In this document: piece by piece, positions 14,714 to 54,266 of the stretch
How positions within the stretch are numbered: position 1 is the first letter of the stretch
How the letters are laid out: each line of letters opens with the position of its first letter
Assembly: GCA_964398865.1 (NCBI GenBank)
Contig: CAYNOO010000002.1
Span: forward strand, 3,588 to 67,587
Direction of reading: 5' to 3'
DNA length: 64,000 bases
Origin: an uncultured Candidatus Saccharibacteria bacterium
Lineage (GTDB): Bacteria; Patescibacteriota; Minisyncoccia; Phycocordibacterales; Phycocordibacteraceae
The notes under the pieces: model-generated
Told to the model about the DNA's origin: nothing
What the model saw: only the letters and a program-made list of their open reading frames with translations
Database searches by the model: none
Translations under genes and position numbers: made by a program

Positions 14714-14806
14714 ATGTCGATTCGCCGCAAGCTTCGCCACTTCCAGAAACAGGAATTTAATTTCCATCAAACCCTCCATTCATTGGAGGGTTTTTTCAAT
14801 CTATGA
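14714..14806 (+). CDS. candidate 30-aa leader peptide (MSIRRKLRHFQKQEFNFHQTLHSLEGFFNL)
   Basis: The ORF runs through the terminator-like hairpin. Its TGA stop overlaps the carA ATG as ATGA. Confidence 0.25.
   Translation: MSIRRKLRHFQKQEFNFHQTLHSLEGFFNL
14769..14796 (+). promoter_or_regulatory. terminator/attenuator hairpin sequestering the carA Shine-Dalgarno (aaaCCCTCCattcatTGGAGGGtttttt)
   Basis: 7-bp GC-rich stem plus a T6 run, 6 nt upstream of the carA ATG. GGAGGG inside the stem is the only Shine-Dalgarno-like sequence for carA. Confidence 0.5.
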
Positions 14807-15879
14807 AACTCATCTTGAAAGACAAGTCGGTTTTCGAAGGCGAAAGTTTTGGTGCAGATGTACCCATCGCTGGCGAAGTCGTTTTCAACACGGGCATGGT
14901 TGGTTACGTCGAGAGTCTCTCGGATCCTTCGTACGCCGGGCAGATACTCGTCTGTACGTATCCTCTCATAGGTAACTATGGCGTGCCGAGCCCAGAATTC
15001 TTCGAATCAAATAAAATTCATGCAGCTGGTCTCGTGGTGAGCGAGTACAGCGAGAAGTACTCGAGCCACACTGCGAAGCAGTCGTTATCTGAATGGCTCA
15101 AACGCTCTGGTGTCCCGGCGCTCTCTGGTGTTGATACGCGTGCGATTACGAAGCGACTTCGCGAGCATGGTGTCATGTTGGGGCAGCTCGTTCCTCACGG
15201 TCGCCCTGGGAAATTCACAGATCCCAATGACGAGAATCTCGTTGCGCAGGTAAGTGTTGCGAAAAAAGAAATTTACGGAAATGGGAAAACCGTCATTGTT
15301 GCGGTGGACTGCGGTATGAAAGAGAATATCGTGCGCTCGTTATTGAAGTTTGATGTCACGATCATCCGTGTGCCCTGGGATTACGATTTCACGAATGAAA
15401 ACTACGATGGCTTGTTTCTTTCGAACGGTCCCGGTGACCCGATGATGTGTGGTGCCACGGTCGCACACATCCAGAAGGCGATAGAAAGCGGGAAGCCAAT
15501 CTTGGGAATCTGTCTCGGCACTCAGCTTCTGGCGCTTGCAGCCGGAGCGCGCACGTACAAATTAAAGTACGGACATCGCGGTCAGAATCAGTCATGTATT
15601 GATATTCTTGGAAATGCAAAACCTGGCGCTCGTGCGAAAGACCGCTGCTACATAACCTCACAGAATCACGGCTACGCGGTAGATAAGAAGACTCTCCCGA
15701 AAGAGTGGAAGGTCTGGTTTGAGAATGCGAACGACGGCTCTGTCGAAGGAATCAGACATACAACGAAGCCATGGCGTGCAGTGCAATTTCATCCAGAGGC
15801 ATCTCCTGGACCTACTGACACAAGTTGGATTTTTGAGGATTTCATTCGCACGGTAAAGGCGGCAAAAAAACATGCTTAA
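14803..15879 (+). CDS. carA: carbamoyl-phosphate synthase small (glutaminase) subunit
   Basis: CPSase small-chain N-domain plus a class I glutamine amidotransferase domain with the catalytic Cys (ILGICLGTQLL). Confidence 0.95.
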   Translation: MKLILKDKSVFEGESFGADVPIAGEVVFNTGMVGYVESLSDPSYAGQILVCTYPLIGNYGVPSPEFFESNKIHAAGLVVSEYSEKYSSHTAKQSLSEWLKRSGVPALSGVDTRAITKRLREHGVMLGQLVPHGRPGKFTDPNDENLVAQVSVAKKEIYGNGKTVIVAVDCGMKENIVRSLLKFDVTIIRVPWDYDFTNENYDGLFLSNGPGDPMMCGATVAHIQKAIESGKPILGICLGTQLLALAAGARTYKLKYGHRGQNQSCIDILGNAKPGARAKDRCYITSQNHGYAVDKKTLPKEWKVWFENANDGSVEGIRHTTKPWRAVQFHPEASPGPTDTSWIFEDFIRTVKAAKKHA

Positions 15880-18800
15880 GAAACCTAAAAAAATCCTTAT
15901 CTTAGGCTCAGGCGGACTCAAAATCGGTCAGGCTGGTGAATTTGATTATTCGGGCTCGCAGGCAATCAAGGCCTTCAAAGAAGAGGGTATTGGGACTGTC
16001 CTCATGAATCCCAACATTGCGACGGTGCAGACCGACAAAGGTTTGGCAGATTCCGTGTACTTCCTTCCGCTCACGGAGAAATTTGCAGAAGATGTGATAC
16101 GACAAGAACGCCCCGACGCGATTGCGCTGAGCTTCGGCGGGCAGACCGCGCTCAATCTTGGGTTAACACTCGAAGAGAACGGTACGTTGAAGAAATACGG
16201 CGTGCACGTGTTAGGTACGCCAGTGTCTGTCGTCCGCGACACGGAAGATAGAGATCTTTTTATAAAACGTTTGGACGAGATTGACGTTAAGACTGCGCGA
16301 AGTTTTGCTGCGCGAAGCATCAAGGATGCAGAGAGAGCTGCCGAGAAACTCGGATACCCCGTGATGGTACGCATGGGTTTTGCTCTCGGCGGTGAAGGAT
16401 CAGGACTTATTCGCTCCGCGGCGGAACTTCGGCTGCGTCTGGCAGAGGCATTCAAACGTAGTCCTCAGGTGTTGATTGAAGAATATCTCGCCGGATGGAA
16501 AGAGGTGGAGTACGAAGTGGTGCGCGATGCGGCGGATAACTGCATCGTTGTGTGCAACATGGAGAACATAGACCCGATGGGAGTCCACACGGGAGAATCA
16601 ATAGTGGTCGCTCCGTCGCAGACGCTTACCAACGAGGAGTATCATCGTCTTCGCGAAATCGCGATTAAAACGATTCGTCATCTTGGGGTCGTCGGTGAGT
16701 GCAACATTCAATACGCACTTCACCCCAAAACAGGCGATTACCGCGTCATAGAAGTGAATGCACGTCTCTCGCGCTCATCCGCGCTCGCTTCAAAGGCGAC
16801 AGGGTATCCGCTTGCATTCATCGCGGCAAAACTCGCGCTCGGTCATTCACTCACAACACTCGTAAACTCCGTCACCAAGACAACGACAGCCTGTTTTGAG
16901 CCGGCACTTGATTATCTTGTCTTGAAAGTTCCGCGCTGGGATTTGAACAAATTTGAGAATGCTGTCTCGAAAATCGGAACCGAAATGAAGTCGGTGGGTG
17001 AGGTGATGGCAATTGGGCGTTCCTTTGAAGAGGCTCTTCAGAAAGCGCTTCGCATGCTCACCATAGGCGCTGATGGTTTTACCTCGCATCGAAGCAGTAA
17101 CTTCCGTATCCCGACGTACCTTGAGGAAATTAACGAACCTACCACTAGACGTGTATTTGCTATCGCAGAGGCGCTCCGTCACGGCGTCTCCGTAGAGAAG
17201 ATTCATGAGCTTTCAGGAATCACGCCCTGGTTCTTGGAGAAGATGAAAAACATTATTGATGTTGAAAAGAAGTTACACCGTAACGCGCTCACTCCAGCGC
17301 TCCTAAAAGTTGCGAAGCAGCATGGATTCTCTGACATCCAGATTGCCGTTGCGAAGAAAAGCACTGAAGCAAAAGTTCGTGCACTTCGACAGAAGTCCGG
17401 AGTCATCCCTTCTGTAAAGCAAATCGACACTTTGGCAGGGGAGTTTCCCGCACAAACAAATTATTTGTATCTCACCTACCACGGCTCGGAACATGATGTG
17501 GCTCCCAGTCGCGGCGCCATCGCGGTCTTGGGAAGCGGTCCGTATTCTATTGGCTCCTCGGTGGAGTTTGATTGGTCAAGCGTGCAAGTCTTGCAGACGC
17601 TCAAAGCGGAAGGAGAGAAGACTGTAATGATTAATTACAATCCCGAAACTGTCTCTACCGACTACGACATGTCTGATCGCTTGTATTTTGAAGAGCTTTC
17701 ACTCGAGCGGGTTTTGGATATTGTGGAGTTTGAGCGCACAAAGGGTGTGGTGGTTTCAACGGGAGGTCAGATTCCTAATAACCTTGCGCTGCCGCTCCAT
17801 ACAAACGGCGTAAAAATTCTCGGTACGCATCCAGAAGACATCAACCGCGCGGAAGATCGTCACGTATTTTCGCAACTCTTGGACAAACTCAACATTGATC
17901 AGCCTGCATGGGCGGAATTGACCACGACAAAAGCAGCAGCTCTCACCGCTAAAAAACTCGGCTATCCGGTCTTGGTGCGCCCCTCCTACGTACTCTCGGG
18001 TGCTGCTATGGGAATCGCCTCCGACAAAGCGTCATTGATAAAGTTCTTAGAGCGCGCGGTTGATGTTTCGTCAGAACATCCGATAGTCATCTCGAAGTTT
18101 ATCGAAAATGCGCGCGAGATTGAGATAGATGGCGTAGCGGCGAAAGGCAAGCTCGCCATTTACGCGATTACCGAGCACGTGGAGAACGCCGGCACCCATT
18201 CGGGAGATGCGACTGTGGTATTACCTGCGCAGCGCACGTACCTGGAGACTATTCGCCGCGCGAAGCATGTCACGAAACAAATCATCAAAGAGCTCAAAAT
18301 CACTGGCCCCTTTAACATCCAATTCCTAGCGAAAGATAACAATCTTCAGGTCATCGAATGCAACGTCCGCGCATCGCGTAGTTTCCCGTTCGTATCAAAA
18401 GTCACTCGATACAATTTCATCGAGCTTGCGACGAAAGCTTTCTTAGGTAAAGACATCAGCGGAGAATACCGGACATTGGAACTTGATTACGTCGCAGTGA
18501 AGTCTCCACAATTTTCATACAACCGTATCAAGGGCGCAGACCCGCTTGGCTACGTCGAGATGGCATCAACGGGAGAAGTCGCATGTTTCGGCGACTCCTA
18601 TCCGGAAGCTTTATTGAAATCCATGCTCTCCGCAGGATTCAGAATTCCCAAGAAGAACATTCTGATTTCCTTAGGCGGTGAGGAGAATAAGGTCAAACTC
18701 TTGCCGGCAATTCAGAAACTCTCTGAGATGGGATTCAAACTTTTTGCCACCGAGCACACGGCTGATTTCCTAAAAACCCATAACATCAAGTCAGAGCGCG

Positions 18801-19087
18801 TCCATAAAATAAAGAGCAAACAAGAGCCAAATGTGCGCACGCTTCTTGATTCTGGAAAGCTTGATCTCATCATCAATCTTCCAAACCGAGGCTTGGTGAG
18901 AGAGGGGAACGGCAAGAATGGCTCTGACCCGTCCGACGGTTTCATCATCAGGCGGAAAGCCGTGGACTTTAACATCTCTCTTATCACCAACCGCCAGCTC
19001 GCAGAGGCTTTCGCGATGGCGCTCGCAGAAGTTGGAGAGAAGGGTTTGAGCGCAAAAGCGTGGGATGCGTATCAGAAAGATGCTTAA
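15872..19087 (+). CDS. carB: carbamoyl-phosphate synthase large subunit
   Basis: 1071 aa with duplicated ATP-grasp halves and a C-terminal MGS-like domain. Overlaps carA by 8 nt. Confidence 0.95.
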   Translation: MLKKPKKILILGSGGLKIGQAGEFDYSGSQAIKAFKEEGIGTVLMNPNIATVQTDKGLADSVYFLPLTEKFAEDVIRQERPDAIALSFGGQTALNLGLTLEENGTLKKYGVHVLGTPVSVVRDTEDRDLFIKRLDEIDVKTARSFAARSIKDAERAAEKLGYPVMVRMGFALGGEGSGLIRSAAELRLRLAEAFKRSPQVLIEEYLAGWKEVEYEVVRDAADNCIVVCNMENIDPMGVHTGESIVVAPSQTLTNEEYHRLREIAIKTIRHLGVVGECNIQYALHPKTGDYRVIEVNARLSRSSALASKATGYPLAFIAAKLALGHSLTTLVNSVTKTTTACFEPALDYLVLKVPRWDLNKFENAVSKIGTEMKSVGEVMAIGRSFEEALQKALRMLTIGADGFTSHRSSNFRIPTYLEEINEPTTRRVFAIAEALRHGVSVEKIHELSGITPWFLEKMKNIIDVEKKLHRNALTPALLKVAKQHGFSDIQIAVAKKSTEAKVRALRQKSGVIPSVKQIDTLAGEFPAQTNYLYLTYHGSEHDVAPSRGAIAVLGSGPYSIGSSVEFDWSSVQVLQTLKAEGEKTVMINYNPETVSTDYDMSDRLYFEELSLERVLDIVEFERTKGVVVSTGGQIPNNLALPLHTNGVKILGTHPEDINRAEDRHVFSQLLDKLNIDQPAWAELTTTKAAALTAKKLGYPVLVRPSYVLSGAAMGIASDKASLIKFLERAVDVSSEHPIVISKFIENAREIEIDGVAAKGKLAIYAITEHVENAGTHSGDATVVLPAQRTYLETIRRAKHVTKQIIKELKITGPFNIQFLAKDNNLQVIECNVRASRSFPFVSKVTRYNFIELATKAFLGKDISGEYRTLELDYVAVKSPQFSYNRIKGADPLGYVEMASTGEVACFGDSYPEALLKSMLSAGFRIPKKNILISLGGEENKVKLLPAIQKLSEMGFKLFATEHTADFLKTHNIKSERVHKIKSKQEPNVRTLLDSGKLDLIINLPNRGLVREGNGKNGSDPSDGFIIRRKAVDFNISLITNRQLAEAFAMALAEVGEKGLSAKAWDAYQKDA

Positions 19088-19097
19088 ATGAAGGGGT

Positions 19098-19721
19098 ATG
19101 GATGACGTCATACAGATTCTGAAAGACGCGGGCGCAATACTAGAGGGTCATTTCATCGGTGTTTCGGGACGGCATCTTCCTGTGTACATCAACAAGGACG
19201 CATGGCTCTTGCACACGGGACTCGTCTCAAAGATCTGTCGGATGCTTGCTGAGCTGAATAAAGATAATCAGATAGACGTAGTCGTGGGACCCGCTGTCGG
19301 TGGCGTCGTTATTTCACAGTGGACGGCGTACCACTTATCAGAAATCACTGGCAGGGAAGTATTGAGTGTTTTTACTGAAAAGACTCCAGAGGGTGGGCAG
19401 ATACTAAAGCGAAACTACGACAAGGTGGTAGCGGGGAAGCGTATTCTCGCCGTTGAGGACACGGTCACGACGGGCGGGTCCGTGAAAAAAACTATTGACG
19501 CTATTGCTTCGGCTGGAGGAAATGTCGTGCAGCTTTCACTTATTGTGAATAGGAATCCTAAAGAGGTGACCGCGGCAACGTTTGGTCTGCCGGTAAGCGC
19601 GCTTGCCGAGATTGATATGGAAAGTTACGAAGAAAATGAAGTGCCGGAGTGGTTGAAAGCAATTCCCATCAACACTGAGTTCGGGCACGGTGCGAAGTAT
19701 CTTAAAGAACATATGAGTTGA
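19098..19721 (+). CDS. pyrE: orotate phosphoribosyltransferase (type I PRTase)
   Basis: PRPP-binding motif RILAVEDTVTTGGS, plus its position inside the pyr cluster. Confidence 0.7.
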   Translation: MDDVIQILKDAGAILEGHFIGVSGRHLPVYINKDAWLLHTGLVSKICRMLAELNKDNQIDVVVGPAVGGVVISQWTAYHLSEITGREVLSVFTEKTPEGGQILKRNYDKVVAGKRILAVEDTVTTGGSVKKTIDAIASAGGNVVQLSLIVNRNPKEVTAATFGLPVSALAEIDMESYEENEVPEWLKAIPINTEFGHGAKYLKEHMS

Positions 19722-19722
19722 T

Positions 19723-20790
19723 ATGTTGCAAACTCCTTTTTACGACCCAACAAAGTCATACGACGACAATTATGCGAATGGTCCCTTTGGTGTGTTCGCG
19801 GGTGTCTCCGCATATGAAGAGAGAGGCGAGCCGGAGTATGAGATTTTCGGGCACAAAGTCTACACGCCATTCGGCATCCCGGCAGGACCCTTATTGAATA
19901 GCAAATTCATGAAAGGTGCGTTTGATAACGGCTTTGATGTATCGATTTACAAGACAGTACGAAGCGGGGTCTACCCCTGTCATCCGTTCCCGAATGTGCT
20001 TGCCGTCCACATTCCTGGCGATCTCAGCCTTGAAGCGGCAGCACGCGAGCCTCTCGTTGCGGATACGAATTACGAAGAGCCTATTTCCATAACCAATTCG
20101 TTCGGCGTTCCTTCTAAAGAAGCCCGAACGTGGCAGGATGATTTCAAGGAGTCAGAGAAATATGCGAAGAAAGGTCAGCTCGCAATCTTAAGTTTCATGG
20201 GAACGGTGAAAGAAGGGCAGACGCATCAGGAGTTCGTGGATGACTACGTGCTTGCTGCGAAGCTTTCAAATGATGCAGGTGCCAAAGTGCTCGAAGTAAA
20301 CTTGTCGTGCCCGAACATCGGCAACGAAGGATTAGTCTGTTACGACTTGAAGACTACTGAAGAAGTGTGCGCTGGTATCCGCAGTGTCATCGGCACGACG
20401 CCCTTGATATTGAAAGTCGGCTACTACAAGGAAGACGCTGACATCAAGGAGCTCGGAAGGATCGCCGACAAGTACGCAGACGGCATTTCCGCAATCAATA
20501 CCGTACAGGCAACTATCATCGACAAAGACGGTACTCAGGCGCTGCCGGGTAAGAATCGCGTAAAGAGTGGCGTGTGCGGGGCATCCATAAAATGGGCAGG
20601 TTTGGACATGGTGAAGCGCTTGCACGCCATCCGAAGCGCGGGAGGTTTAAACTTTAAGATTTGCGGAGTGGGTGGCGTAACGACGGCAGCTGATTATGCC
20701 GCATATCGTGCCGCGGGGGCGGATATCGTGATGAGTGCAACGGGTGCGATGTGGAATCCAAATCTGGCGATAGAGATTAAGTCGTTATAA
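19723..20790 (+). CDS. pyrD: dihydroorotate dehydrogenase family protein
   Basis: LEVNLSCPN signature and TIM-barrel flavoprotein motifs. Carries an N-terminal extension. Confidence 0.75.
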   Translation: MLQTPFYDPTKSYDDNYANGPFGVFAGVSAYEERGEPEYEIFGHKVYTPFGIPAGPLLNSKFMKGAFDNGFDVSIYKTVRSGVYPCHPFPNVLAVHIPGDLSLEAAAREPLVADTNYEEPISITNSFGVPSKEARTWQDDFKESEKYAKKGQLAILSFMGTVKEGQTHQEFVDDYVLAAKLSNDAGAKVLEVNLSCPNIGNEGLVCYDLKTTEEVCAGIRSVIGTTPLILKVGYYKEDADIKELGRIADKYADGISAINTVQATIIDKDGTQALPGKNRVKSGVCGASIKWAGLDMVKRLHAIRSAGGLNFKICGVGGVTTAADYAAYRAAGADIVMSATGAMWNPNLAIEIKSL

Positions 20791-20804
20791 ATTAGCATTC
20801 GTAC

Positions 20805-21710
20805 ATGAAAATACAGCACGTCATCGAGACTCAGCAATTTGACCGCGAAGCACTTAATAAGCTTTTCAAGCTTGCAACTTCTTTTGAAAAAAATCGCACG
20901 AAGGATCTCGACGGAAAGATTATGGCGTCGTTGTTTTTCGCACCCTCAACCCGCACCCGTCTTTCTTTCGAGTCTGCCATGTATCGCCTCGGCGGTCATG
21001 TTATCTCAATGGAGAATGCGAGCGAATCGTCCTCATCGACAAAAGGGGAGACTATTGAGGACACTATCCGCATCGTAGACAATTACGCGGATGTAATCAT
21101 TCTTCGGCATCCAGAAGTCGGTACGCTCGCGAGGGCTGCTGCTGTTTCGGAAGTTCCCGTCATTAATGCCGGCGACGGCATCGGTCAGCATCCCACGCAG
21201 GCGTTCTTGGACCTGTACACCATAGAGCGAGAGATAGGTCGCACTGACAATTTCCATATCGCATTCGTGGGGAATCTTGCCTACTATCGCGCAGCCCGTT
21301 CCCTCGCGTATCTTCTTTCAAAATACGAGAACATTACGATGACGTTCGTATCCGGTTCGGAGCTTAGGATGAAGGATGACGTTAAAGAGCATCTCAAAGA
21401 GAAAGGGGTTACGTTTACCGAGACTGAAGACTTGGAGAAAGCGATGAGCGAAGCTGATGTTGTCTATCAGACGCGTATCGCGGAAGAATGGATTCCTGAT
21501 CACGACCAATACGAAAAGCTTCGCGGAAAGTACGTCATCACACGCCCGATGACCGATCACATGAAAGACGGCGCCATTCTCATTCATCCACTGCCGCGCG
21601 CAGGCGAGATCATGCCGGAAGTCGACGACTCTCCCCATGCGGTTTATTTCAAGCAGGCAGAATACGGAGTACTCGTGCGCATGGCACTCTTGAAAACTCT
21701 CTTAGCGTAA
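20805..21710 (+). CDS. pyrB: aspartate carbamoyltransferase catalytic subunit
   Basis: STRTRLSFE carbamoyl-phosphate-binding motif and HPLP motif. 301 aa. Confidence 0.9.
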   Translation: MKIQHVIETQQFDREALNKLFKLATSFEKNRTKDLDGKIMASLFFAPSTRTRLSFESAMYRLGGHVISMENASESSSSTKGETIEDTIRIVDNYADVIILRHPEVGTLARAAAVSEVPVINAGDGIGQHPTQAFLDLYTIEREIGRTDNFHIAFVGNLAYYRAARSLAYLLSKYENITMTFVSGSELRMKDDVKEHLKEKGVTFTETEDLEKAMSEADVVYQTRIAEEWIPDHDQYEKLRGKYVITRPMTDHMKDGAILIHPLPRAGEIMPEVDDSPHAVYFKQAEYGVLVRMALLKTLLA

Positions 21711-21767
21711 CCGTATTGGTGAAATAAAGAACTACTCTTCAGAGGAACAGAGCACGGGCGGTCACGG

Positions 21768-21816
21768 TAAGTGATTTGATATATCATATCAGCGATATGA
21801 TATATCAAATCACTTA
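21768..21816. repeat. AT-rich palindrome, copy 2, expanded form (taaGTGATTTGATATATCATATCAGCGATATGATATATCAAATCACtta)
   Basis: A roughly 49-bp near-perfect palindrome built from two overlapping copies of the family motif. It sits between convergent pyrB and pyrC. Confidence 0.8.
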
Positions 21817-21841
21817 AATGAAGATGCTTTCTATTTACATG

Positions 21842-22933
21842 TCAGAAGACGCGCCATTGTATAGGAGTTCGTTTTGTCGGGTTCTCGTCATAGCCTAATG
21901 GGTGGATTTTTTCTCCGTCTTCAACGTCCACCAGCTCGTCTATCAACCAAGGTTCTTTTACAAGGGTTATTTTTTCTTCGTTAGGCTGCACGTTGTAGAA
22001 TTTCGGACCATTCAATGACGCGAACGCCTCTAAATTTTCTAACTTTCCCATATCTTCAAAAACTCCCGTGTAGAGTTCAATTGCTGCAGGTGCGCTAAAG
22101 ATGCCCGCGGCGGGCGCTTCGCGCTCTTTCGCCGATACTGGGTGAGGTGCCGAGTCGGTACCGAGAAAAAAATACGGCTCGCCGGAGGTTGCCGCTTCGC
22201 GAATGGCTTTTTGATTCGCTTCGTCCTTTATCACCGGCATGCAGTGAAGGTATGCGGGTTTCTCGCTCTGCAGTACGTCCTCATGGTTTTCCATTAAGTG
22301 GTGCACGGTAATCGTGGAGGCAAGGCGATTGCTCTTTTCGTTTCGTATAAAAGCAACTGCGTCTTTCGTTGTCGCGTGCTCCAAGACAATTTTCAATTCC
22401 GGAAAATCTTTCAGTAGCTGTGGAAGAATCGTGTCTAGAAAAACCTTTTCCCTATCATACGGGTCGACATCATTGCCTTGATAGCGGAGCGTCTCTCCGT
22501 GAATGAGGATGGGCATGCCAATTTTCTGCATCGTTTCAAGCACTGCTCGTACTTTGCTAATGTCAGTGACGCCCTGTGTGGAGTTTGTGGTAGCTCCCGC
22601 AGGATAGAGCTTTACTGCAGTTGCCAAACCTTCTTTGAAACCTTGCGCGATATCTTCAGCGGAAGAATTGTCCGTGAGGTAGTACGTCATGAGAGGAGTG
22701 AAAGGAAAGTCTCCAATGGCTTCGAGTATCCGACCTCGGTATGCGCGGAGCTCATCAGTCGTGAGGATTGGGTTCGGCGAGAGATTAGGCATTACAATTG
22801 CGCGCCCGAAGTGCTTGGCAGTGAAGGGGAGCACAGCTCTGAGCATCGCTCCGTCGCGCAAGTGCACATGCCAATCGTCGGGTTTCCGTATAGTTAGAGA
22901 GTCCATATTCTGAGAATATTCTAGCATTCGCAA
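21842..22933 (-). CDS. pyrC: dihydroorotase
   Basis: DWHVHLRDG metal-binding motif and an amidohydrolase fold. 363 aa. Confidence 0.8.
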   Translation of the reverse strand: MRMLEYSQNMDSLTIRKPDDWHVHLRDGAMLRAVLPFTAKHFGRAIVMPNLSPNPILTTDELRAYRGRILEAIGDFPFTPLMTYYLTDNSSAEDIAQGFKEGLATAVKLYPAGATTNSTQGVTDISKVRAVLETMQKIGMPILIHGETLRYQGNDVDPYDREKVFLDTILPQLLKDFPELKIVLEHATTKDAVAFIRNEKSNRLASTITVHHLMENHEDVLQSEKPAYLHCMPVIKDEANQKAIREAATSGEPYFFLGTDSAPHPVSAKEREAPAAGIFSAPAAIELYTGVFEDMGKLENLEAFASLNGPKFYNVQPNEEKITLVKEPWLIDELVDVEDGEKIHPLGYDENPTKRTPIQWRVF

Positions 22934-34793: not shown

Positions 34794-35777
34794 ATGAACA
34801 AAGGAAAAGCATTTGAGTATGCGTCTGCGATTGCGCTTCGTGATGCTGTTATAGCTTCAGGGGAGCTTGATGCCGTTTTAGAAGAGAATCCATCACTTCA
34901 AATTGCCCGACGTTGTTTCGCTGAAATTGAGGTAGAGGCTCCAGAAGCAGCACGAAAATTAATGGTTGTTGCTGAAGCTTCCGCAAAACTTCTGTTGGAG
35001 GCTGAGCCAAAATTAACTAGTCTCGAAGAAGGATTCTCTTCTTCGGTGCTGATTTCTTTGCAGCCGGACGCCGCAGGGGTGAGCGGTGACGTTAGGGATA
35101 TCGTCGTCACCAAAAGAGCTACTGGGAACGGAGCAGATTGGGCGATAGGGCTTTCTTGCAAGCATAACAATGACGCCGTCAAACATCAGCGTTTGTCGCC
35201 TTCAATTAACTTTGGTCAGCAATGGCTCGGTGTTCCTCTCCTTGCTGAGGATTTTACTGAGCTCGATCGAATTTTTTCACAGATTGATGCAGATAAAGTG
35301 CAAGGGTTTGCAGATTGGAATCAAATTCCGAATAAGGAAGCTCGTTACTATCAGCCATTGCTGCAGTTGGTGCTTGATAAAATTGCTTCAAACCCCGATC
35401 AGAATGCTTTAGCTGAGCGGCTACTATCCTACCTGATAGGCAATGAAGATTTTTATAAAGTAATCATGAATGAAGGGCTCAGGGGAAACGCTCAATTAAC
35501 ATTCCAAGGCTTTAACTTTAATGGCTCTCTGAATCAAGCAGCCTTAGGAGGAGAAAGGGCCCATACGGCTGTGGCACGGCTAACCCTGCCGAATCATATT
35601 ATTGATGCCAGCATGAAGCCTAATAGCGCCAATACCTTAAAAATATCTTTTGGCGGGGGATGGCAAGTTTCCATGCGCATACATAGTGCCAGCACCAAGT
35701 TACAGAAAAGCTTAAAAATGGATGTGCGATTGCTGGAGACCCCGCCAGAGCTTTTTAGTCAAACGGTTAGCATTTGA
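34794..35777 (+). CDS. candidate type II restriction endonuclease (cognate of the downstream GGCC-family methyltransferase)
   Basis: 327-aa ORF ending 17 bp upstream of the C5-methyltransferase on the same strand. No housekeeping homology. Context-based assignment. Confidence 0.45.
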   Translation: MNKGKAFEYASAIALRDAVIASGELDAVLEENPSLQIARRCFAEIEVEAPEAARKLMVVAEASAKLLLEAEPKLTSLEEGFSSSVLISLQPDAAGVSGDVRDIVVTKRATGNGADWAIGLSCKHNNDAVKHQRLSPSINFGQQWLGVPLLAEDFTELDRIFSQIDADKVQGFADWNQIPNKEARYYQPLLQLVLDKIASNPDQNALAERLLSYLIGNEDFYKVIMNEGLRGNAQLTFQGFNFNGSLNQAALGGERAHTAVARLTLPNHIIDASMKPNSANTLKISFGGGWQVSMRIHSASTKLQKSLKMDVRLLETPPELFSQTVSI

Positions 35778-35794
35778 TAGGGTAAAATATACCT

Positions 35795-36832
35795 ATGCGG
35801 GTTGCATCTCTTTTTTCCGGAGCTGGCGGTTTAGACTTGGGCTTTAAGAAAGCCGGTTTTGATGTCGTGTGGGCAAATGAATATGATCCCGCGATTTGGA
35901 AAACATTTGAATTAAATTTCCCTGATACCACTTTAGATCGGCGAAACGTCGTTGACGTTGCTTCGGAAGACATTCCGGATGTTGATGGGATTATTGGCGG
36001 ACCACCGTGCCAGAGCTGGAGCGAAGCGGGAGCTGGCAGGGGGGTCAATGATAAACGCGGGCGACTTTTTTTTGACTATATCCGGATTTTGAAAGATAAA
36101 GAACCTTTATTTTTCTTAGCAGAAAATGTTTCTGGAATCCTTTTCGACCGTCATGCAAGCGCGTTTGCTGAGATAGTGAGGCAGTTTAGCGATGCTGGAT
36201 ATTCGGTGAATTATAAATTATTGAATGCGCATGACTACGACGTTCCTGAAGATCGCCTGCGAGTGATTATCGTGGGCTACCATAAGAAACTTGGGCGAAC
36301 ATTTGAATTTCCTGAACCCATCACTGAAAAGATTTTTCTTAAAGACGCGATTGGCAATTTGCCTCCCGCAACACCGGCAAAGGCGATGAATAAAACTAAT
36401 GGAGAAAACCTTTCCATCCCTAACCACGAATATATGACGGGTGGATTTTCGACTATGTATATGTCGCGTAATCGTGTTCGCTCATGGGGCGAGCCTTCTT
36501 TCACAATTCAGGCAGGAGGTCGCCATGCGCCCATTCATCCGCAGGCGCCAAAAATGCAATTGATTTCCAAGGATGTGCGTATTTTTGCTCCGGGGAAAGA
36601 ACACCTGTACCGACGCTTATCGGTCCGTGAGTGCGCGCGCATTCAGACTTTCCCTGATAATTTTATTTTTGATTATAAAAATATCGGAGACGGCTACAAG
36701 ATGATCGGTAACGCGGTGCCAGTTAATTTTGCTAAAGCTATCGCGAAAAAAATAAAAAAAGATCTTTCAATGGGGCGCTCTACTTCGAGGCAATCGCTCA
36801 AAGGAGGTAAAGAGTTCGCTCTATTTGCCTAA
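35795..36832 (+). CDS. DNA (cytosine-5)-methyltransferase, M.HaeIII-like (GGCC family)
   Basis: Motif I FSGAGGLDLGF, motif IV GGPPCQSWS and ENV. The variable region (NKTNGEN, PNHEY, MSRNRVRSW, KEHLYRRLSVRECARIQTFPDNFIF, DGYKMIGNAVPVN) matches M.HaeIII as I recall it. Confidence 0.85.
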   Translation: MRVASLFSGAGGLDLGFKKAGFDVVWANEYDPAIWKTFELNFPDTTLDRRNVVDVASEDIPDVDGIIGGPPCQSWSEAGAGRGVNDKRGRLFFDYIRILKDKEPLFFLAENVSGILFDRHASAFAEIVRQFSDAGYSVNYKLLNAHDYDVPEDRLRVIIVGYHKKLGRTFEFPEPITEKIFLKDAIGNLPPATPAKAMNKTNGENLSIPNHEYMTGGFSTMYMSRNRVRSWGEPSFTIQAGGRHAPIHPQAPKMQLISKDVRIFAPGKEHLYRRLSVRECARIQTFPDNFIFDYKNIGDGYKMIGNAVPVNFAKAIAKKIKKDLSMGRSTSRQSLKGGKEFALFA

Positions 36833-36882: not shown

Positions 36883-39357
36883 ATGTTTAAAAAAATAAAA
36901 GACACTTCGATCCTTCGAAACGCACGCCAAGGACTTGAGCGGGAAGCCTTGCGAGTGGATGGTCAGGGGCGTATCGCAACGAACCTTCATCCGAACGCGT
37001 TCGGGTCACCGCTTACCAATCCCTATATCACACTTGATTTTTCTGAAGCGCAGCTTGAATTCATCACGCCGCCTTTGAAGGGAGGGCCGGCTCTCCGGGG
37101 CTTTCTTGAGAAACTCTACGCGTGGAGCTACCGGCAGATCGGTAGGGAGCTTCTCTGGCCGTTCAGCATGCCAGGAAAGTTGCCGGAGCACAGAAAGATA
37201 GCGCTTGCTCAGTTTGGTGCTTCTGTGGACGCTGAAGCGAAGCGCATCTACCGCGAAGGCTTGAAGCAGCGCTATGGCGGCGCCGTGCAGACTATCTCGG
37301 GCATCCATTACAATTTCTCTCTTTCTGAATCCTTCTGGAGCGCATACGCGAGGGAGTGCGGCATTCTAGGCGATATATCGTCCTTCAAAGACGAGCAGTA
37401 TTTTTCCCTGATGCGGAACGTCATCCGCTATGTGCCTTTAGTGACGTATCTTTTCGGTGCGTCCCCAGCCGCCGATAAGAGCTTTTTTACATCGCATCCT
37501 GAAAGTTTGAAGCAGCTCGATGCTTCAACATGGTACGGACCGTGGGCGACGTCCTTGCGACTCAGCGATTTTGGCTACCATAATGCGAAACGCAGTCCCG
37601 CTAGCGTTTCCTTCAACTCGCTTTCGGAATATGTGAATGATCTCTACAAAGCGGTATCAACTCCGTCGAAATTGTGGAGCGCGCTCGGCACCGAGGAGAG
37701 CGGGAAACAGATACAGCTCAACACGAACATATTGCAACTTGAGAACGAGTTCTATGCTTCCATACGCCCCAAACAAAAGACGCACATGCACCCTGGAGAG
37801 AGTGTCCTTTGTTCCTTGGCGTGCGCGGGAGTGGAGTATGTAGAACTTCGAAGCATCGACCTTGACCCTTATGATCCGGCTGGAATTGGCGAGGAAGAAC
37901 TCTCTTTTCTCCATGCGTTCATGACCTATTGTTTACTGGTGCCGAGCGCTCGGTTTAAGGAAGGCGAGCAGAAGAAACTGGAAGACACTCACTCGCTCGT
38001 CGCGCTCATGGGTCGCAAGCCCGGTCTTGCTATCGATACGGGATCGCGGAAAGAGATTTTTTCGGCATGGGCGTCAAAGGCGCTGAAGGCTATTGCTGAA
38101 GTCGCGGAACTTTTGGATGAGGCGCATGAGACAAAACGATTTTCGCGGGTGGTGGCAGCGCAAGCGGAAAAGTTAGCAGACTCAGAGCTTACCCCTTCTG
38201 CGCGCGTCATCCGTGAGATGAGAGAGAAAGGAATCTCCTATGCTCTATACGGTGTGGCACTCGCGAAATCATACAAAGCCTCTGCGCGCGCTCTAGCCTT
38301 GTCTGCTTCATATCAGGCGGAGATGAAAGAGCTTGCCCGTATTTCTCTCGAGGAAGCATCGCGTCGCGAAGCATATGATGATTGGATACTGAAAGGCTAT
38401 GAGCATCTCGAGCTCTCTACTCAGATAGTGATACGAGCCGCACAGAAGCGAGGCATCGTCGTCGAAGTTCTTGACCCTACGCTCAACGTTATTGAGCTCA
38501 CGAAAGGAAAGAAGAAAGAGGTCGTGAAGCAAGGAACTATCACGCGCTATGACAATTACCTCGGGTATGAGCTCATGAACCACAAATCTCTCACGAAGCT
38601 TTTTCTTCTGCATGCTGGCATCTCGACGCCTCAAGGAGAGCGATTCACGGATAAGCAGGAAGCTCTTGATTTTTATCCAGCGCATTGCTCGCATGCGCTT
38701 GTCGTGAAGCCTTCCAGTACCAACTACGGCACGGGCGTCTCGATCGTCCGTCCTCGCGGAGATAAGGCATATCAATTAGCTGTTGAGCGAGCCTTCAAGC
38801 ATGACAGCACCATCCTCGTCGAGGAGTTCATCCCCGGAAAGGAATACCGTTTTCTCGTAATAGCTGGCAAGGTTATCGCAGTTCTGAACCGCGACCCGGC
38901 AAATGTGATAGGAGACGGAATACACAGCATTCGTGAGCTGGTGGAAGCGAAGAACACGGACCCCTTGAGTTATAAGCTGCCCGAGAAATATATTCACCTC
39001 CGAGCTGTCGAGAAAGAAATACTCGCCGAAGCGAAGCTCACGCCTGACTCCGTCCCTTCGCGAAATCGGAAAGTGTATCTGCGGAAGAACTCCAACGTGA
39101 ACGACGGAGGAGATCCTATCGACATACCCGACATGCCTGCGGCATACAAGAGGATAGCCATTCGCGCGGCTCGGACAGTGGGCGCGAATATATGCGGAGT
39201 CGATATGATAATCAAAGATCCCCTGAAGGTTCCGAAGGCGAACAATCATTCCATCATCGAGCTGAATTGGAATCCGGCGCTCTACCTCCACGGCTACCCG
39301 ATCAAAGGAAAACGACGCGATGTGGGCGGGGCAGTCTTAGATTTCTTGGGGTTTTGA
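36883..39357 (+). CDS. gshF: bifunctional glutamate-cysteine ligase/glutathione synthetase
   Basis: N-terminal GshA-like region (GLEREALRVDGQGRIATNLHP...LEFITPP) fused to a C-terminal ATP-grasp domain. 824 aa. Confidence 0.8.
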   Translation: MFKKIKDTSILRNARQGLEREALRVDGQGRIATNLHPNAFGSPLTNPYITLDFSEAQLEFITPPLKGGPALRGFLEKLYAWSYRQIGRELLWPFSMPGKLPEHRKIALAQFGASVDAEAKRIYREGLKQRYGGAVQTISGIHYNFSLSESFWSAYARECGILGDISSFKDEQYFSLMRNVIRYVPLVTYLFGASPAADKSFFTSHPESLKQLDASTWYGPWATSLRLSDFGYHNAKRSPASVSFNSLSEYVNDLYKAVSTPSKLWSALGTEESGKQIQLNTNILQLENEFYASIRPKQKTHMHPGESVLCSLACAGVEYVELRSIDLDPYDPAGIGEEELSFLHAFMTYCLLVPSARFKEGEQKKLEDTHSLVALMGRKPGLAIDTGSRKEIFSAWASKALKAIAEVAELLDEAHETKRFSRVVAAQAEKLADSELTPSARVIREMREKGISYALYGVALAKSYKASARALALSASYQAEMKELARISLEEASRREAYDDWILKGYEHLELSTQIVIRAAQKRGIVVEVLDPTLNVIELTKGKKKEVVKQGTITRYDNYLGYELMNHKSLTKLFLLHAGISTPQGERFTDKQEALDFYPAHCSHALVVKPSSTNYGTGVSIVRPRGDKAYQLAVERAFKHDSTILVEEFIPGKEYRFLVIAGKVIAVLNRDPANVIGDGIHSIRELVEAKNTDPLSYKLPEKYIHLRAVEKEILAEAKLTPDSVPSRNRKVYLRKNSNVNDGGDPIDIPDMPAAYKRIAIRAARTVGANICGVDMIIKDPLKVPKANNHSIIELNWNPALYLHGYPIKGKRRDVGGAVLDFLGF

Positions 39358-41717: not shown

Positions 41718-42089
41718 ATGATGAAACCTTTCCTTCACTGGCTGCTGTCAGCCATCGTGATTGGCGTTGCTGCGTTCTTGGTGCCAGGTGTCGAAGTGAC
41801 AATCCTAGGCGCACTTCTCGCGGCTGTCGTCCTTGCGCTTCTCTCAGTGTTTATTAAGCCATTCATTGAGCTTCTCACGTTGCCGGTTAACGTGGTGACG
41901 CTAGGTCTCTTCTCTTTCGTCATCAACGCAGCACTCGTCCTTCTTGCTGCAGCAGTCGTTCCTGGATTTGCCGTTGGCAATTTCTGGTGGGCGCTTCTCT
42001 TCTCGGTCGTACTTTCTCTCCTCAACGTCGTGTTTGGTGTCGGGGTCATGGAATCTGATCGAAAGGTTTTGAGCCCACGACATTCGTGA
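41718..42089 (+). CDS. phage holin family protein (YvlD/DUF360-like, 4 transmembrane segments)
   Basis: Strong resemblance to YvlD-type proteins (AFLVPGVEV...LLSVFIKPFIELLTLPVNVVTLGLFSFVINAALVLLAAAVVPGF). Confidence 0.65.
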   Translation: MMKPFLHWLLSAIVIGVAAFLVPGVEVTILGALLAAVVLALLSVFIKPFIELLTLPVNVVTLGLFSFVINAALVLLAAAVVPGFAVGNFWWALLFSVVLSLLNVVFGVGVMESDRKVLSPRHS

Positions 42090-42818: not shown

Positions 42819-43085
42819 ATGGACATACTTCTCATTAATATCGTCGGCTACACCGCGAGCGTTGTTGGCACCTCGTTGATGTTGCCTCAGATGTATAGGT
42901 CGTTGAAGACAAAAAGCGTCGAAGACCTTTCGTGGGGCATGCTCATACTTTATTTCCTGAACTGTGCTCTGTGGCTTATGTATGGAATCTTAATAGGTGC
43001 GATGCCAGTCATCATCACGAATGCAGTGGCGCTTCTCATAAGTATTATCCAGATTGCTCTGAAGATGCGGTATTCGAAACACTAG
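42819..43085 (+). CDS. SemiSWEET / PQ-loop family sugar transporter
   Basis: 88 aa, 3 transmembrane segments and the PQ motif (LPQMYRSLKTKS). Confidence 0.75.
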   Translation: MDILLINIVGYTASVVGTSLMLPQMYRSLKTKSVEDLSWGMLILYFLNCALWLMYGILIGAMPVIITNAVALLISIIQIALKMRYSKH

Positions 43086-49639: not shown

Positions 49640-52360
49640 ATGACCACACTGCAGAAAACAAAAAAGAGAAACGGAACTATCGTTGATTTCAATCAGGAAA
49701 AAATCGTTTCTGCAGTCTCTAAGGCATTTTTTGAAGTTCTTCAGGATACGCATAGTGATGAATCACAGGCTATAGGTGAGGCTGTCGCGAGCGCTGTTCG
49801 CCTTCGTTACGCTGGCACGGCTTCCATACCCTCGGTTGAGGAAATTCAGGATCTTGTAGAGCATTCTTTGATGGAGCGCTCATATTTTGATGTCGCGAAG
49901 GCATACATCATCTACCGTTACGAGCACGCAAAGATTCGCGAAGAGAAACAAGAAGAAGTAGTCAAGAAAATCGAAGAGCGCGGACTCTTAATTGTAAAAC
50001 GAAACGGGGAACGCGAAATATTTTCTATCGATCAGATACGCAAGACCATCCAGTTCAGCGTGTTGCCTGAGAATGTGCGTGCAGTCGACATTGACGGCTT
50101 CATTTCTCAAGTGCAACGCGAAGTGTATGACGGCATCTCGACAAAAGAAATTGAGCGCACGCTCATCATGGTTGCGCGCTCGATGATTGAACGCGATCCT
50201 GCATACAATCAGCTCGCTGCGCAACTTCTTTTGAATTCTCTCTACAACGAAGTGCTGCACACCGACGCTATTTCTATTGTGTCCGGAGATTTCGACACGA
50301 CGTACCGCGCTGCATTCGTTAAGAACGTGAAGACTGCGGTGGAATTGAAACAGCTCGATGAGCGAATACTTTCTTTTGATCTTTCAAAGATTGCAGCAGC
50401 ACTTCGACCTGAGCGCGATCGCTTGTTGAAATACATTGGTGTCGCGACTCTCTCTGATCGCTACCTCATTCATAACAAAGAAAACAAGCAGCCTCTCGAG
50501 ACTCCGCAGATGCTCTACATGCGTGTTGCGATGGGAGTTGCATTGAATGAGAAAGAAAACCGCGAAGCATGGGCAATCCGTTTCTACGAGATGCTCTCAA
50601 CCTTGCGCTTCGTTCCTTCAACGCCGACCTTGTTCCACTCCGGCATGCCGCGCGCACAGCTTTCCTCTTGCTACCTCAACACCGTTGAAGATGATTTGGA
50701 CCAGATATTCAAGGTATATGGTGACAATGCGCAGATGTCCAAGTGGGCAGGCGGCATCGGCACTGACTGGACGAACCTTCGCGCTACTGGCGCCTATATA
50801 AAGAAGGCAGGTATTACATCCCAGGGCGTCGTACCGTTCTTGAAGATTGCAAACGACGTTACGGTGGCTATAAACCGCTCTGGTAGGCGCCGCGGAGCCA
50901 CTGCTGTTTACCTTGAGACATGGCACTACGACATTGAAGACTTCTTGGAGCTCCGTAAGAACACGGGAGATGAGAGACGCCGTACGCACGACATGAACAC
51001 GGCGAACTGGATTCCGGACTTGTTTATGAAACGCGTGCGTGAGAACGGCTCGTGGACATTGTTCTCTCCTGATGAGACGCCAGATCTTCACCACATCTAC
51101 GGCAAGAAATTCGAAGAAGCCTACGCTCGTTATGAGAAGCTCGCTGACGAAGGGAAGATAAAACTCTTCAAGAGAATGAAGGCAGGGGATTTGTGGAAGA
51201 AGATGCTTGCGATGCTCTACGAGACGGGACACCCATGGATTACGTTCAAAGATCCCAGCAATATCCGCTCTCCGCAAGACCACGTAGGCGTCATACACAA
51301 CTCAAACCTCTGCACAGAGATTACACTCAACAATTCAAAAGATGAGACTGCTGTCTGCAACTTGGGCTGGGTGAATTTCGCGATGCATGTGACTGGCAGC
51401 GCATTTGATCGAGAGAAAGTGAAAGAAACAGTGACGGTTGGTATGCGCATGCTCGACAATGTGATTGATCTCAACTTCTATCCGACGATTGAAGGAAGAA
51501 ACTCAAACATGCGACATCGACCAGTTGGCTTGGGTGTTGGCGGATTCCAGGATGCGCTCTACCAGCTCAATATCGATTTTGCATCTGAAGCATGCGTGCA
51601 GTTTGCTGATGAGAGTATGGAGATTCTTTCCTACTACTCGATACTCGCATCCACCGATCTTGCGCGCGAAAGGGGGGCGTATGAATCTTTTGCGGGGTCC
51701 AAGTGGGATCGAGGACTCTTGCCCGTCGACACTATCAAGCTTCTTGAAGATGAACGCGGAGAGACGATTGATGTGGCGCGTGACACCAAGCTTGATTGGA
51801 ATGCTATTCGCGACGCGATTAAGAAATACGGTATGCGCAATTCAAACTGCATGGCTATCGCTCCGACAGCCTCTACTTCGAACATTGTCTCAGTCGTTCC
51901 ATCCGTCGAACCTGTCTACAAGAACATCTACGTAGAATCCAACATCAGCGGTGACTTTACGGTGGTGAATCCGTACCTCGTTGAGGACTTGAAAAAACTG
52001 AATCTTTGGAATGATTCGATGTTGAACGAGTTGAAATATCAAGATGGCTCTGTCGGCAAGATTGCAGGCATTCCGCAAGCACTGAAAGATAAATATAAGG
52101 AAACGTTCGAGATAGATATGCGTTGGATAATTCGCGCTGCGGCATATCGCGGAAAGTGGATTGACCAGTCGCAGTCCTTGAACATCTTCTTCCGCGGCTC
52201 GTCAGGTAAGGAGCTTTCCGAGATTTACTTCTATGCATGGGAGATGGGCTTGAAGACGACGTATTACCTCCGCTCGCTCGCTGCAACTCAAGTCGAGAAA
52301 GCGACCGTTTCCACCAAGGAATTCGGCTCCACCACACGCGCGATCAGAATGCAGGCGTAG
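49640..52360 (+). CDS. nrdA: ribonucleoside-diphosphate reductase alpha subunit (class Ia) with an N-terminal ATP-cone
   Basis: An ATP-cone (KRNGTIVDFNQEKI), the RNR large-subunit core and a C-terminal YY (TTYYLRS). The expected CxxC tail is not in this frame. Confidence 0.9.
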   Translation: MTTLQKTKKRNGTIVDFNQEKIVSAVSKAFFEVLQDTHSDESQAIGEAVASAVRLRYAGTASIPSVEEIQDLVEHSLMERSYFDVAKAYIIYRYEHAKIREEKQEEVVKKIEERGLLIVKRNGEREIFSIDQIRKTIQFSVLPENVRAVDIDGFISQVQREVYDGISTKEIERTLIMVARSMIERDPAYNQLAAQLLLNSLYNEVLHTDAISIVSGDFDTTYRAAFVKNVKTAVELKQLDERILSFDLSKIAAALRPERDRLLKYIGVATLSDRYLIHNKENKQPLETPQMLYMRVAMGVALNEKENREAWAIRFYEMLSTLRFVPSTPTLFHSGMPRAQLSSCYLNTVEDDLDQIFKVYGDNAQMSKWAGGIGTDWTNLRATGAYIKKAGITSQGVVPFLKIANDVTVAINRSGRRRGATAVYLETWHYDIEDFLELRKNTGDERRRTHDMNTANWIPDLFMKRVRENGSWTLFSPDETPDLHHIYGKKFEEAYARYEKLADEGKIKLFKRMKAGDLWKKMLAMLYETGHPWITFKDPSNIRSPQDHVGVIHNSNLCTEITLNNSKDETAVCNLGWVNFAMHVTGSAFDREKVKETVTVGMRMLDNVIDLNFYPTIEGRNSNMRHRPVGLGVGGFQDALYQLNIDFASEACVQFADESMEILSYYSILASTDLARERGAYESFAGSKWDRGLLPVDTIKLLEDERGETIDVARDTKLDWNAIRDAIKKYGMRNSNCMAIAPTASTSNIVSVVPSVEPVYKNIYVESNISGDFTVVNPYLVEDLKKLNLWNDSMLNELKYQDGSVGKIAGIPQALKDKYKETFEIDMRWIIRAAAYRGKWIDQSQSLNIFFRGSSGKELSEIYFYAWEMGLKTTYYLRSLAATQVEKATVSTKEFGSTTRAIRMQA

Positions 52361-52374
52361 AGGCTGGAAATGCA

Positions 52375-52509
52375 ATGTCTGCTACAAAGGCTGCACCTGT
52401 AGTTCCAGTGCCGCAAGCAGCTCCGGTTGCTGTTGCTTCAGCTCCCGCGGCACCCCGAACCTATGTCTTGCATCGTGCTCTTGCAGCAGCGTGCGAGTCG
52501 TGTGAGTAA
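52375..52509 (+). CDS. 44-aa Ala/Pro-rich ORF ending ...AAACESCE (RNR R1-type CxxC tail, out of frame with nrdA)
   Basis: Frame 1 stays open across the nrdA stop, back to at least 52237. Confidence 0.3.
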   Translation: MSATKAAPVVPVPQAAPVAVASAPAAPRTYVLHRALAAACESCE

Positions 52510-52608: not shown

Positions 52609-53643
52609 ATGGCAATACAAAGGAACGCAAAACCCGTCGACGTGAACCTCCGTCGCATCATAAATGGTGTCGAAGCGGACGTTATTCAGCTCTATCCTAT
52701 ACGCCATAAGTTTGCGTGGGAGTACTACAACGCGGCAAACTCCAACCACTGGCTTCCGACAGAAATCTCCATGCAGCTCGACATCGAACAGTGGAAGTCG
52801 CCAACCGCTCTGACCTCAGACGAGCGACACGCGTTCGAGACTATTCTCGGGTTCTTTACCACCGCTGACTCAATCGCCGCAAACAATATTGTCATTGGTT
52901 TCTACAAGCATGTCACCAGTCCTGAGGTGCGCATGTATTTGCTTCGCCAGGCATATGAGGAAGCGATTCATACGCATGCGTATCAGTACATCGTGGAGTC
53001 CTTAGGCATGGATGAATCGAAGATATTCAACATGTACCGCGAAGTTGACGCCCTCTACAATAAGGAAGCATTCATTCTCTCGTTTAATGAAGGAATCTTC
53101 GAGAGCAATTTCAAGACCGGCACGTTCGAGGCTGACCAGAAATTCTTAGAGAACTGGTGCGTCTTCTCACTTATCTTGGAGGGTATTTTCTTCTACTCAT
53201 CGTTTGCAGTCATGTTCGGCTTCCAGCGACAGCACAAGCTTACCGGTTCTGCCGAGCAGATTCAGTACATCATGCGCGATGAGTCCATGCACTTGAACTT
53301 CGGCTTGGAAATCATCAATGCTATTCGCGAAGAGAATCCGGAATTGTGGACCAAAAGCTTTCAGGATCGCATCATCGAACTCGTACACCAGGCAGTGAAA
53401 TTGGAATACACCTACGCGAAGGACGTCTTTCCGACAGGAATTTTCGGCTTGAACGCGGACGGCTTCAAGGAATATATTCAATTCATTGCGGACAGAAGAC
53501 TTGAGCGTGTTGGATTGCCTGCGCAGTTCCATTCACAAAACCCATTTCCATGGATGAGCGAGGCGATTGACTTGGCTAAGAAAAAGAATTTCTTCGAAAC
53601 GAGAGTGACGGAATACAAAACAGGCGGAGCCCTCAACTGGTAA
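52609..53643 (+). CDS. nrdB: ribonucleoside-diphosphate reductase beta subunit (class Ia)
   Basis: Ferritin-like di-iron motifs (YEEAIHTHAY, ESMHLNF). Confidence 0.9.
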   Translation: MAIQRNAKPVDVNLRRIINGVEADVIQLYPIRHKFAWEYYNAANSNHWLPTEISMQLDIEQWKSPTALTSDERHAFETILGFFTTADSIAANNIVIGFYKHVTSPEVRMYLLRQAYEEAIHTHAYQYIVESLGMDESKIFNMYREVDALYNKEAFILSFNEGIFESNFKTGTFEADQKFLENWCVFSLILEGIFFYSSFAVMFGFQRQHKLTGSAEQIQYIMRDESMHLNFGLEIINAIREENPELWTKSFQDRIIELVHQAVKLEYTYAKDVFPTGIFGLNADGFKEYIQFIADRRLERVGLPAQFHSQNPFPWMSEAIDLAKKKNFFETRVTEYKTGGALNW

Positions 53644-53855: not shown

Positions 53856-54266
53856 GTGTTTGTTTTATGCTTTTATGTTTGTGTGGATCAAATAAAGAGA
53901 TTTGAATATCGTGGATTTGATCCGAAGGAAAAGATCCCTCATGGCACAGAGGATGAAGAATTCGGAATGCCTAAGCATTGGTGCGCTATCTGTAAGGATT
54001 GGATAGTGGGCGATAGGGAATGGCGTAAGCACTTAAAAGTTACTGGACATCGAGAACCAGAAACCACCATGAGACCTACATCAGAAAAAATTACATGGGA
54101 AAGAGCTAAGGTACCGCATCATGGTGCGGTTATGGTGGAGAAGGAGGGTGGCGCGCTGAAGCGATATTGCAGTTTCTGTGAGGAATGGAAGAGCGATGAG
54201 GGATGGCTTGATCACATCAACAAGACAGGTCATCGTACCGTTTTTCCGGATCCGAAAAAGCAGTAA
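53856..54266 (+). CDS. tandem C2H2 (U1/matrin-type-like) zinc-finger protein
   Basis: Two C-x2-C-x12-H-x5-H units (WCAICKDWIVGDREWRKHLKVTGH and YCSFCEEWKSDEGWLDHINKTGH). The true start is probably the Met at 53967. Confidence 0.5.
   Translation: MFVLCFYVCVDQIKRFEYRGFDPKEKIPHGTEDEEFGMPKHWCAICKDWIVGDREWRKHLKVTGHREPETTMRPTSEKITWERAKVPHHGAVMVEKEGGALKRYCSFCEEWKSDEGWLDHINKTGHRTVFPDPKKQ

Follow-up and report, generated by a model that had tools for sequence, protein, structure and literature searches.

The window, the whole 64-kb stretch of DNA analyzed here, carries on its forward strand the gene for the alpha subunit of a ribonucleotide reductase (RNR), nrdA, followed directly by nrdB, which encodes the beta subunit. 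The nrdA open reading frame (ORF) as deposited occupies 49640–52360 and encodes 906 amino acids (aa), while a second frame that overlaps its end carries what reads as the C-terminal redox tail of the same protein. The features are as follows:

49640–52333, + strand: nrdA body, residues 1–898, comprising the ATP-cone, R1 N-terminal, and barrel domains; in frame and intact
52331–52335, + strand: frameshift site at the Thr898/His899 codon boundary, with ACC followed by AC where relatives have ACN CAC/CAT; C52333 belongs to both frames
52334–52360, + strand: out-of-frame read-through TRAIRMQA and TAG stop; no homolog has TRAIRMQA, and homologs continue GSTH(T/K)RD
52333–52509, + strand: native C-terminal tail in the −1 frame, residues 899–956 of the restored protein (58 residues)
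52492–52503, + strand: CESC redox Cys pair (CxxC), seen in the sequence
52609–53643, + strand: nrdB (RNR beta subunit), intact and directly downstream of nrdA; matches NF005550 at 517.9 bits (cutoff 309)

The identity of the nrdA ORF is well supported by profile and structure comparisons. It scores 1249.5 bits (cutoff 965) with the equivalog model NCBIfam NF005544 (ribonucleoside-diphosphate reductase subunit alpha), in an alignment that places ORF residues 6–897 on profile positions 35–928 of 965 and leaves the C-terminal part of the model unmatched. Its homologs carry PF03477, PF00317, and PF02867, and its closest solved structure is 5im3_A (E=1e-296), followed by eukaryotic R1 and E. coli R1. 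The ORF contains the segments LSSCYL, SNLCTEI, AVCNLG, and TTYYLR, which we take to be the class I R1 active-site and radical-path motifs (active-site Cys pair, N-x-C-x-E, and YY dyad); all of them align with, and are conserved in, 5im3_A and yeast Rnr1 (1zyz_A). Thus equipped with the equivalog match, the catalytic and radical motifs, and a nearby nrdB, the gene has what is expected of a class Ia alpha subunit, save for a redox CxxC pair on the same polypeptide, which is missing from the deposited product as a result of a 1-nt lesion. An Rfam scan of the window returned two tRNAs only, and nothing near nrdA.

Among characterized enzymes, the window gene resembles P. aeruginosa NrdA (PRK07207 type, PDB 5im3) in its order of ATP-cone, R1 N-terminal domain, and catalytic barrel, in its flexible Ala/Pro-rich tail with a terminal CxxC, and in its adjacent nrdB. 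It differs in that one missing nucleotide puts the tail in the −1 frame; the restored gene is otherwise unremarkable. Judged by these features, nrdA reads as an ordinary class Ia RNR alpha subunit from a Patescibacteria (Paceibacteria-like) metagenome-assembled genome (MAG).

Position of the frame break and the displaced tail

The 906-aa ORF ends in ...KEFGSTTRAIRMQA (in a longer excerpt, ...LKTTYYLRSLAATQVEKATVSTKEFGSTTRAIRMQA) at a TAG at 52358–52360, and has no C-terminal Cys pair. Frame 1 (−1 with respect to nrdA) stays open over 52210–52509 and encodes ...HHTRDQNAGVEAGNAMSATKAAPVVPVPQAAPVAVASAPAAPRTYVLHRALAAACESCE, with the terminal ...RTYVLHRALAAACESCE followed by a TAA at 52507–52509. 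A re-reading of the sequence therefore upholds an earlier note on this DNA, which had described a stop at 52358–52360 without the Cys pair, a frame 1 open from before that stop through 52509 and ending in CESC, and an in-frame ATG at 52375 that would give 44 aa. The note's further proposal, that the frame-1 ORF is the NrdA redox tail and that a −1 shift would fuse it to the body, is borne out by tblastn and by the collinearity of relatives. When the NrdA proteins of the two nearest relatives, L001 (GCA_040384205.1, 748,944-bp contig) and L003 (Logan assembly of SRR22388218), serve as queries, residues 1–898 fall in frame 2 (49640–52333) and residues 899–952/953 in frame 1 (52333–52506), such that the high-scoring segments of these intact proteins abut at 52333. 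So clean a two-frame split indicates that the frame-1 ORF is not a chance ORF.

The break itself lies a few bases upstream of 52340–52358, the interval to which the shift had earlier been assigned. A DNA alignment with L001 and L003 contains a single-column gap in the window only, which reads TCCAC-CACACG against TCAACGCATACT and TCCACTCATACT. Written in codons, the context is TCC ACC AC ACG in the window versus TCN ACN CAC/CAT ACN in relatives, with the break at 52333/52334. At the break, 51 related loci with the GSTH motif have one of the Thr codons ACG, ACC, ACA, or ACT and then CAC or CAT, where the window has ACC and then AC; a codon table of 12 close relatives concurs with one missing nucleotide at Thr898–His899. 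Taken together, the gap position and the codon comparison indicate that exactly one nucleotide is missing at 52333/52334. Restoring one base there yields a 956-aa R1 that is collinear with its relatives. Two other candidates were considered and rejected. Read-through of the TAG would not reach the tail, because the nrdA frame meets its next stop after 13 codons and encodes no tail on the way. A second frameshift within the tail, where the nrdA frame reads ...EPMSCIV..., is superfluous given that the frame-1 tail is collinear with those of relatives to the last residue.

The displaced tail consists of a conserved HTRDQNAGVEAGNAMSATK block, an Ala/Pro/Val linker, and a conserved APRTYVLHRALAAACESCE end before the TAA. 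More than 100 homologs besides P0001 and P0002 have tails collinear with it, and its 58 aa have no NCBIfam match. With thioredoxin or glutaredoxin as the source, the CESC tail pair normally relays reducing equivalents to the active-site cysteines. The pattern C-E-S/A-C is invariant in the NrdA family tails compared, and CxxC is the class I consensus for the C-terminal Cys pair (PMC9669993). The earlier likening of the motif to the E. coli R1 tail needs amendment in this respect, as the window has CxxC and not the CxxxxC spacing of E. coli. In biochemical terms, DTT sustains the activity of an R1 without its C-terminal cysteines, whereas tail-dependent reductants do not (PMC4078304).

The tail also bears an imprint of purifying selection. 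The window and L001 are far apart at synonymous sites (pS ~0.67), and in the conserved blocks HTRDQNAGVEAGNAMSATK and APRTYVLHRALAAACESCE the two differ by 13 synonymous and 0 nonsynonymous codons; likewise, the last 19 tail codons differ from those of L003 by 10 synonymous and 0 nonsynonymous changes. The pN/pS of the tail is 0.20 for the window against L001 and 0.18 between two intact relatives, that of the nrdA body being 0.04. These ratios and the complete lack of nonsynonymous changes in the conserved segments imply that frame 1 has been read for essentially the whole of the divergence from the relatives. With a tail so free of decay, the deletion must be very young, if it is real at all.

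The tail in relatives of the window gene

Whether the split is shared can be judged at several levels of relatedness. With a provisional fusion of both frames as the query, 8000 NrdA proteins were returned, the best 120 of which are Patescibacteria/Paceibacteria MAG proteins. In every one of these best 120 of the 8000 (120/120), at a typical length of about 950–1000 aa, the tail is encoded in one ORF and has the ending ...LH(R/K)xxxxxCESC(E/Q); the full-length ones measure ~930–1030 aa. In the C-termini of the best 60 homologs, the body continues ...(F/Y/H)GSTH(T/K)R... and is followed by a variable Ala/Pro/Val/Ser linker and a CES/AC(E/Q) end, which is mostly preceded by (R/K)xYxLH(R/K).

Closer to the window, the NrdA proteins of L001 and L003 are each 96.5% identical to it over residues 1–898, and the window NrdB (344 aa, in a single frame by tblastn) is 94% identical to the NrdB of both. 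The 906-aa product of the window (P0121; NCBI source, 82,162-bp contig) clusters with 12 other sequences from sister species. All 10 of the 10 full-length members of this cluster, drawn from independent NCBI, JGI, ENA, and Logan assemblies, are 953 aa long and carry the tail, and the 906-aa product is the only full-length member to be truncated.

The same pattern holds at the level of genomes. Among 80 related loci taken from species-representative genomes, the Cys pair lies in the same ORF as the barrel in 79. The exception, a distant locus (L070), is truly devoid of a Cys tail and has nrdB following immediately. Frameshift-separated tails occur at none of the 80 related genome loci and in none of the 120 best proteins. 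Same-species sequence at the break, sought in genome and metagenome contigs as an exact pattern with an optional base, was not found, and a degenerate back-translation of the species-specific linker had no match in metagenome contigs. The exact NrdA, NrdB, and CysS sequences of the window likewise had no counterpart in the contig index. From these comparisons, the split tail is not a property of the lineage.

Origin of the missing nucleotide

The reading that best accommodates the locus is a nonprogrammed 1-nt deletion in what would be a standard Patescibacteria nrdA. One nucleotide would have been lost at the Thr898/His899 boundary, such that the ORF ends after eight junk codons and the native 58-residue tail, with its CESC, is put into the −1 frame; the functional gene would then be the restored 956-aa single ORF, and the shift would not be decoded on purpose. 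The gap is probably a sequencing, assembly, or consensus indel, or else an unfixed variant in the MAG consensus, and the working copy in the population would most likely have the base; that is, we infer an error or a transient variant, and not a fixed mutation. A rate of one indel per 64 kb is no more than metagenome assemblies usually retain. With frameshifted genes in draft and MAG assemblies, whether indel artefacts or recent pseudogenes, the window nrdA shares the 1-nt indel, the two abutting conserved frames, and the lack of recoding signals, and nothing distinguishes it from them. Selection points in the same direction: since a tail-less R1 fails with tail-dependent reductants (PMC4078304), strong selection against a fixed truncation is to be expected. 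Counting against an artefact, the 64-kb window contains no other split or truncated gene, so the assembly is not generally error-prone. The break context, CC(C)AC, amounts to at most a 3-base run and is not a classic error hotspot, which also counts against an artefact.

A genuine, very recent frameshift would leave a 906-aa R1 that has lost its redox tail and is a hypomorph, or else a pseudogene in the making. Such an event is rather unlikely, if by no means negligible: The frameshift is, after all, present in the deposited sequence, and a real mutation would sit comfortably with a window in which no other gene is broken and with a break outside any long homopolymer. Tolerance of a real lesion might come via another RNR, via small thiols that reduce the active site directly, or via host supply of dNTPs or deoxynucleosides. 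The window encodes GshF, which makes abundant glutathione plausible, and the distant locus without a Cys tail demonstrates that tail-less R1s can exist. Weighed against these points are the state of the gene and its company. The tail is undecayed, with 0 nonsynonymous changes in its conserved blocks and its stop intact, so the event would have to be extremely recent; very strong constraint acts on the R1 body and on NrdB (pN/pS 0.04; 96.5% and 94% identity); the lesion is shared by no relative; and with reductants of the physiological type, R1 depends on its tail cysteines (PMC4078304). The earlier note had listed a sequencing or assembly indel and a frameshift mutation among its options, and both fit all the evidence.

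Its two remaining options, a programmed frameshift and a separately translated 44-aa peptide, fare far worse. In the former, programmed −1 ribosomal frameshifting or transcriptional slippage would produce the full-length R1 and perhaps set a ratio of tailed to tail-less forms. A −1 shift re-reading C52333 would indeed give exactly the conserved GSTHTRD, and the tail frame is under purifying selection, but the latter is equally accounted for by a recent or artefactual deletion. The overlap zone (52210–52360) contains no X XXY YYZ heptamer, and at the site itself, TCC ACC ACA, the pair ACC ACA cannot re-pair in the −1 frame. Transcriptional slippage would call for a run of A or T, which is absent, and no homopolymer of at least 4 occurs near the break. 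Nor is there a sign of a stimulatory structure: The 85 nt at 52336–52420 fold at −23.8 kcal/mol versus a mean of −25.6 for dinucleotide shuffles (z=+0.54), and in 143 of 200 shuffles the fold is as stable as the native one or more so. Finally, none of the relatives examined has the shift, not even the two that are 96.5% identical. The likeness to dnaX-type programmed −1 frameshifting therefore ends with the need for a −1 shift to obtain a full-length product, as the window has neither slippery heptamer nor stimulatory structure nor a conserved shift. Programmed recoding is accordingly very improbable.

Equally improbable is a true split gene, in which the 44-aa peptide started at ATG 52375 would act like NrdJb and re-reduce the R1 active site in trans. 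The in-frame ATG has a GAGG 11 nt upstream, and there is precedent in the class II enzyme of P. aeruginosa, where a second polypeptide mediates reductive dithiol exchange and both subunits, NrdJa and NrdJb, are needed for a functional enzyme (PMC4520616). As in NrdJa/NrdJb, the catalytic chain is without a reductive Cys motif, which lies in a second ORF just downstream. Beyond this, the two systems diverge. The NrdJ enzyme belongs to class II, its split is conserved in related gamma-proteobacteria, and NrdJb contains predicted folded domains (PMC9669993), whereas the split in the window is unique to one record and its downstream piece looks like a disordered-type linker without an evolved start. 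The same Met and GAGG occur inside the intact L001 ORF (...VEAGNAM...), and hence are probably not an evolved initiation site; moreover, an SD-like core at a suitable distance precedes only 5 of the 43 genes in the window. By its composition, the 44-aa peptide would be a low-complexity Ala/Pro/Val-rich linker with 17 conserved residues, probably devoid of any fold or docking domain, and the conserved HTRDQNAGVEAGNA block would be missing from it. A split is seen in no relative, and no such peptide is recorded as a called protein.

Consequences for annotation

What the window contains is a known gene, nrdA, with a trivial lesion of 1 nt. It is not a new architecture and most likely not a new split or recoded gene. 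For annotation, it is best read as a frameshifted full-length nrdA of 956 aa, and is not to be taken as a tail-less R1 accompanied by a small CxxC ORF. By the same token, it provides no evidence that the organism is without a thioredoxin- or glutaredoxin-coupled RNR.

Were the deletion real and fixed, the locus would constitute a natural experiment on a class Ia R1 without a covalently attached redox tail, although there is little reason to expect this. It is likewise highly doubtful that the deletion is real and fixed in the lineage while the tail is still delivered, either by low-level noncanonical −1 frameshifting or by a trans-acting 44-aa CxxC peptide; if true, it would make this class I R1 the first one with a split or recoded tail. 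The titles and abstracts listed for nrdA frameshifts, nrdA pseudogenes, and RNR C-terminal tails contained no description of a recoded or tail-split class I R1. The only split RNR met in that literature was the class II NrdJa/NrdJb.

Conservation of the nrd genes and an apparently tail-less relative

Across window positions 40500-61250, gene order is otherwise kept in the two nearest relatives with an intact nrdA, L001 (GCA_040384205.1) and L003 (the Logan assembly of SRR22388218). Against these two, NrdA and NrdB stand at 96.5% and 94% amino-acid identity, respectively, versus 49-84% for most of their syntenic neighbors, among which UvrB is the exception (92-94%). The GC3 of nrdA in the window is 0.57, much above the 0.42 and 0.35 of the relatives. 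Near its start, at 49660-49666 (codons 7-8, ..TKKR..), the gene contains a zero-frame A_AAA_AAG. This canonical slippery heptamer of the dnaX type is probably a chance by-product of encoding Lys-Lys.

The NrdA of L070, a distant locus (~57% identity) of the metagenome-assembled genome "bacterium isolate ELA587" (JBAXRQ010000001.1, 5400-5760), terminates in ...EITEISVAAAL. No Cys pair follows the end of this NrdA in any frame within 5400-5760, and nrdB starts immediately after it. It looks like a class I R1 that genuinely has no tail, or else the product of a deletion.

Glutathione, pyrimidine and restriction-modification genes

The following features were annotated in the window:

14803-22933, pyrimidine de novo cluster: carA, carB, phosphoribosyltransferase, DHO dehydrogenase, aspartate carbamoyltransferase and a pyrC-like amidohydrolase
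34794-36832, + strand, HaeIII-type restriction endonuclease (PF09556, E=3.6e-71), then C-5 cytosine DNA methyltransferase (PF00145, E=1.1e-93), from Pfam
36883-39357, + strand, GshF, bifunctional glutamate-cysteine ligase/glutathione synthetase (NF002688, 673.5 bits versus a cutoff of 425)
41718-42089, + strand, four-TMS phage-holin superfamily IV protein (PF04020, E=2e-27)
42819-43085, + strand, single-repeat SWEET/PQ-loop protein (PF03083, E=1.3e-11)
53856-54266, + strand, 136-aa ORF between nrdB and cysS, with two CxxC...HxxxxxH motifs

Glutathione synthesis by GshF looks notable in a small Patescibacteria genome, and it may bear on a glutaredoxin route of R1-tail re-reduction. Patescibacteria are often reported to lack de novo pyrimidine synthesis; in the cluster found here, the amidohydrolase lies on the strand opposite to the other genes. 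Together, the endonuclease and methyltransferase look like a complete type II restriction-modification pair.

A small ORF and translation start signals

The two motifs of the 136-aa ORF read WCAICKDW...HLKVTGH and YCSFCEEW...HINKTGH, and its matches to Pfam C2H2 zinc fingers are weak, all falling under cutoff. The proteins called in L001 and L003 gave no tblastn match to this ORF in the window. Shine-Dalgarno-like cores are scarce, occurring upstream of just 5 of 43 genes in the window. Several genes (start codons at 48324, 59164 and 23300, for example) bear a TAnnnT or "TATACT"-like box just ~6-10 nt 5′ of the ATG, which hints at leaderless mRNAs.
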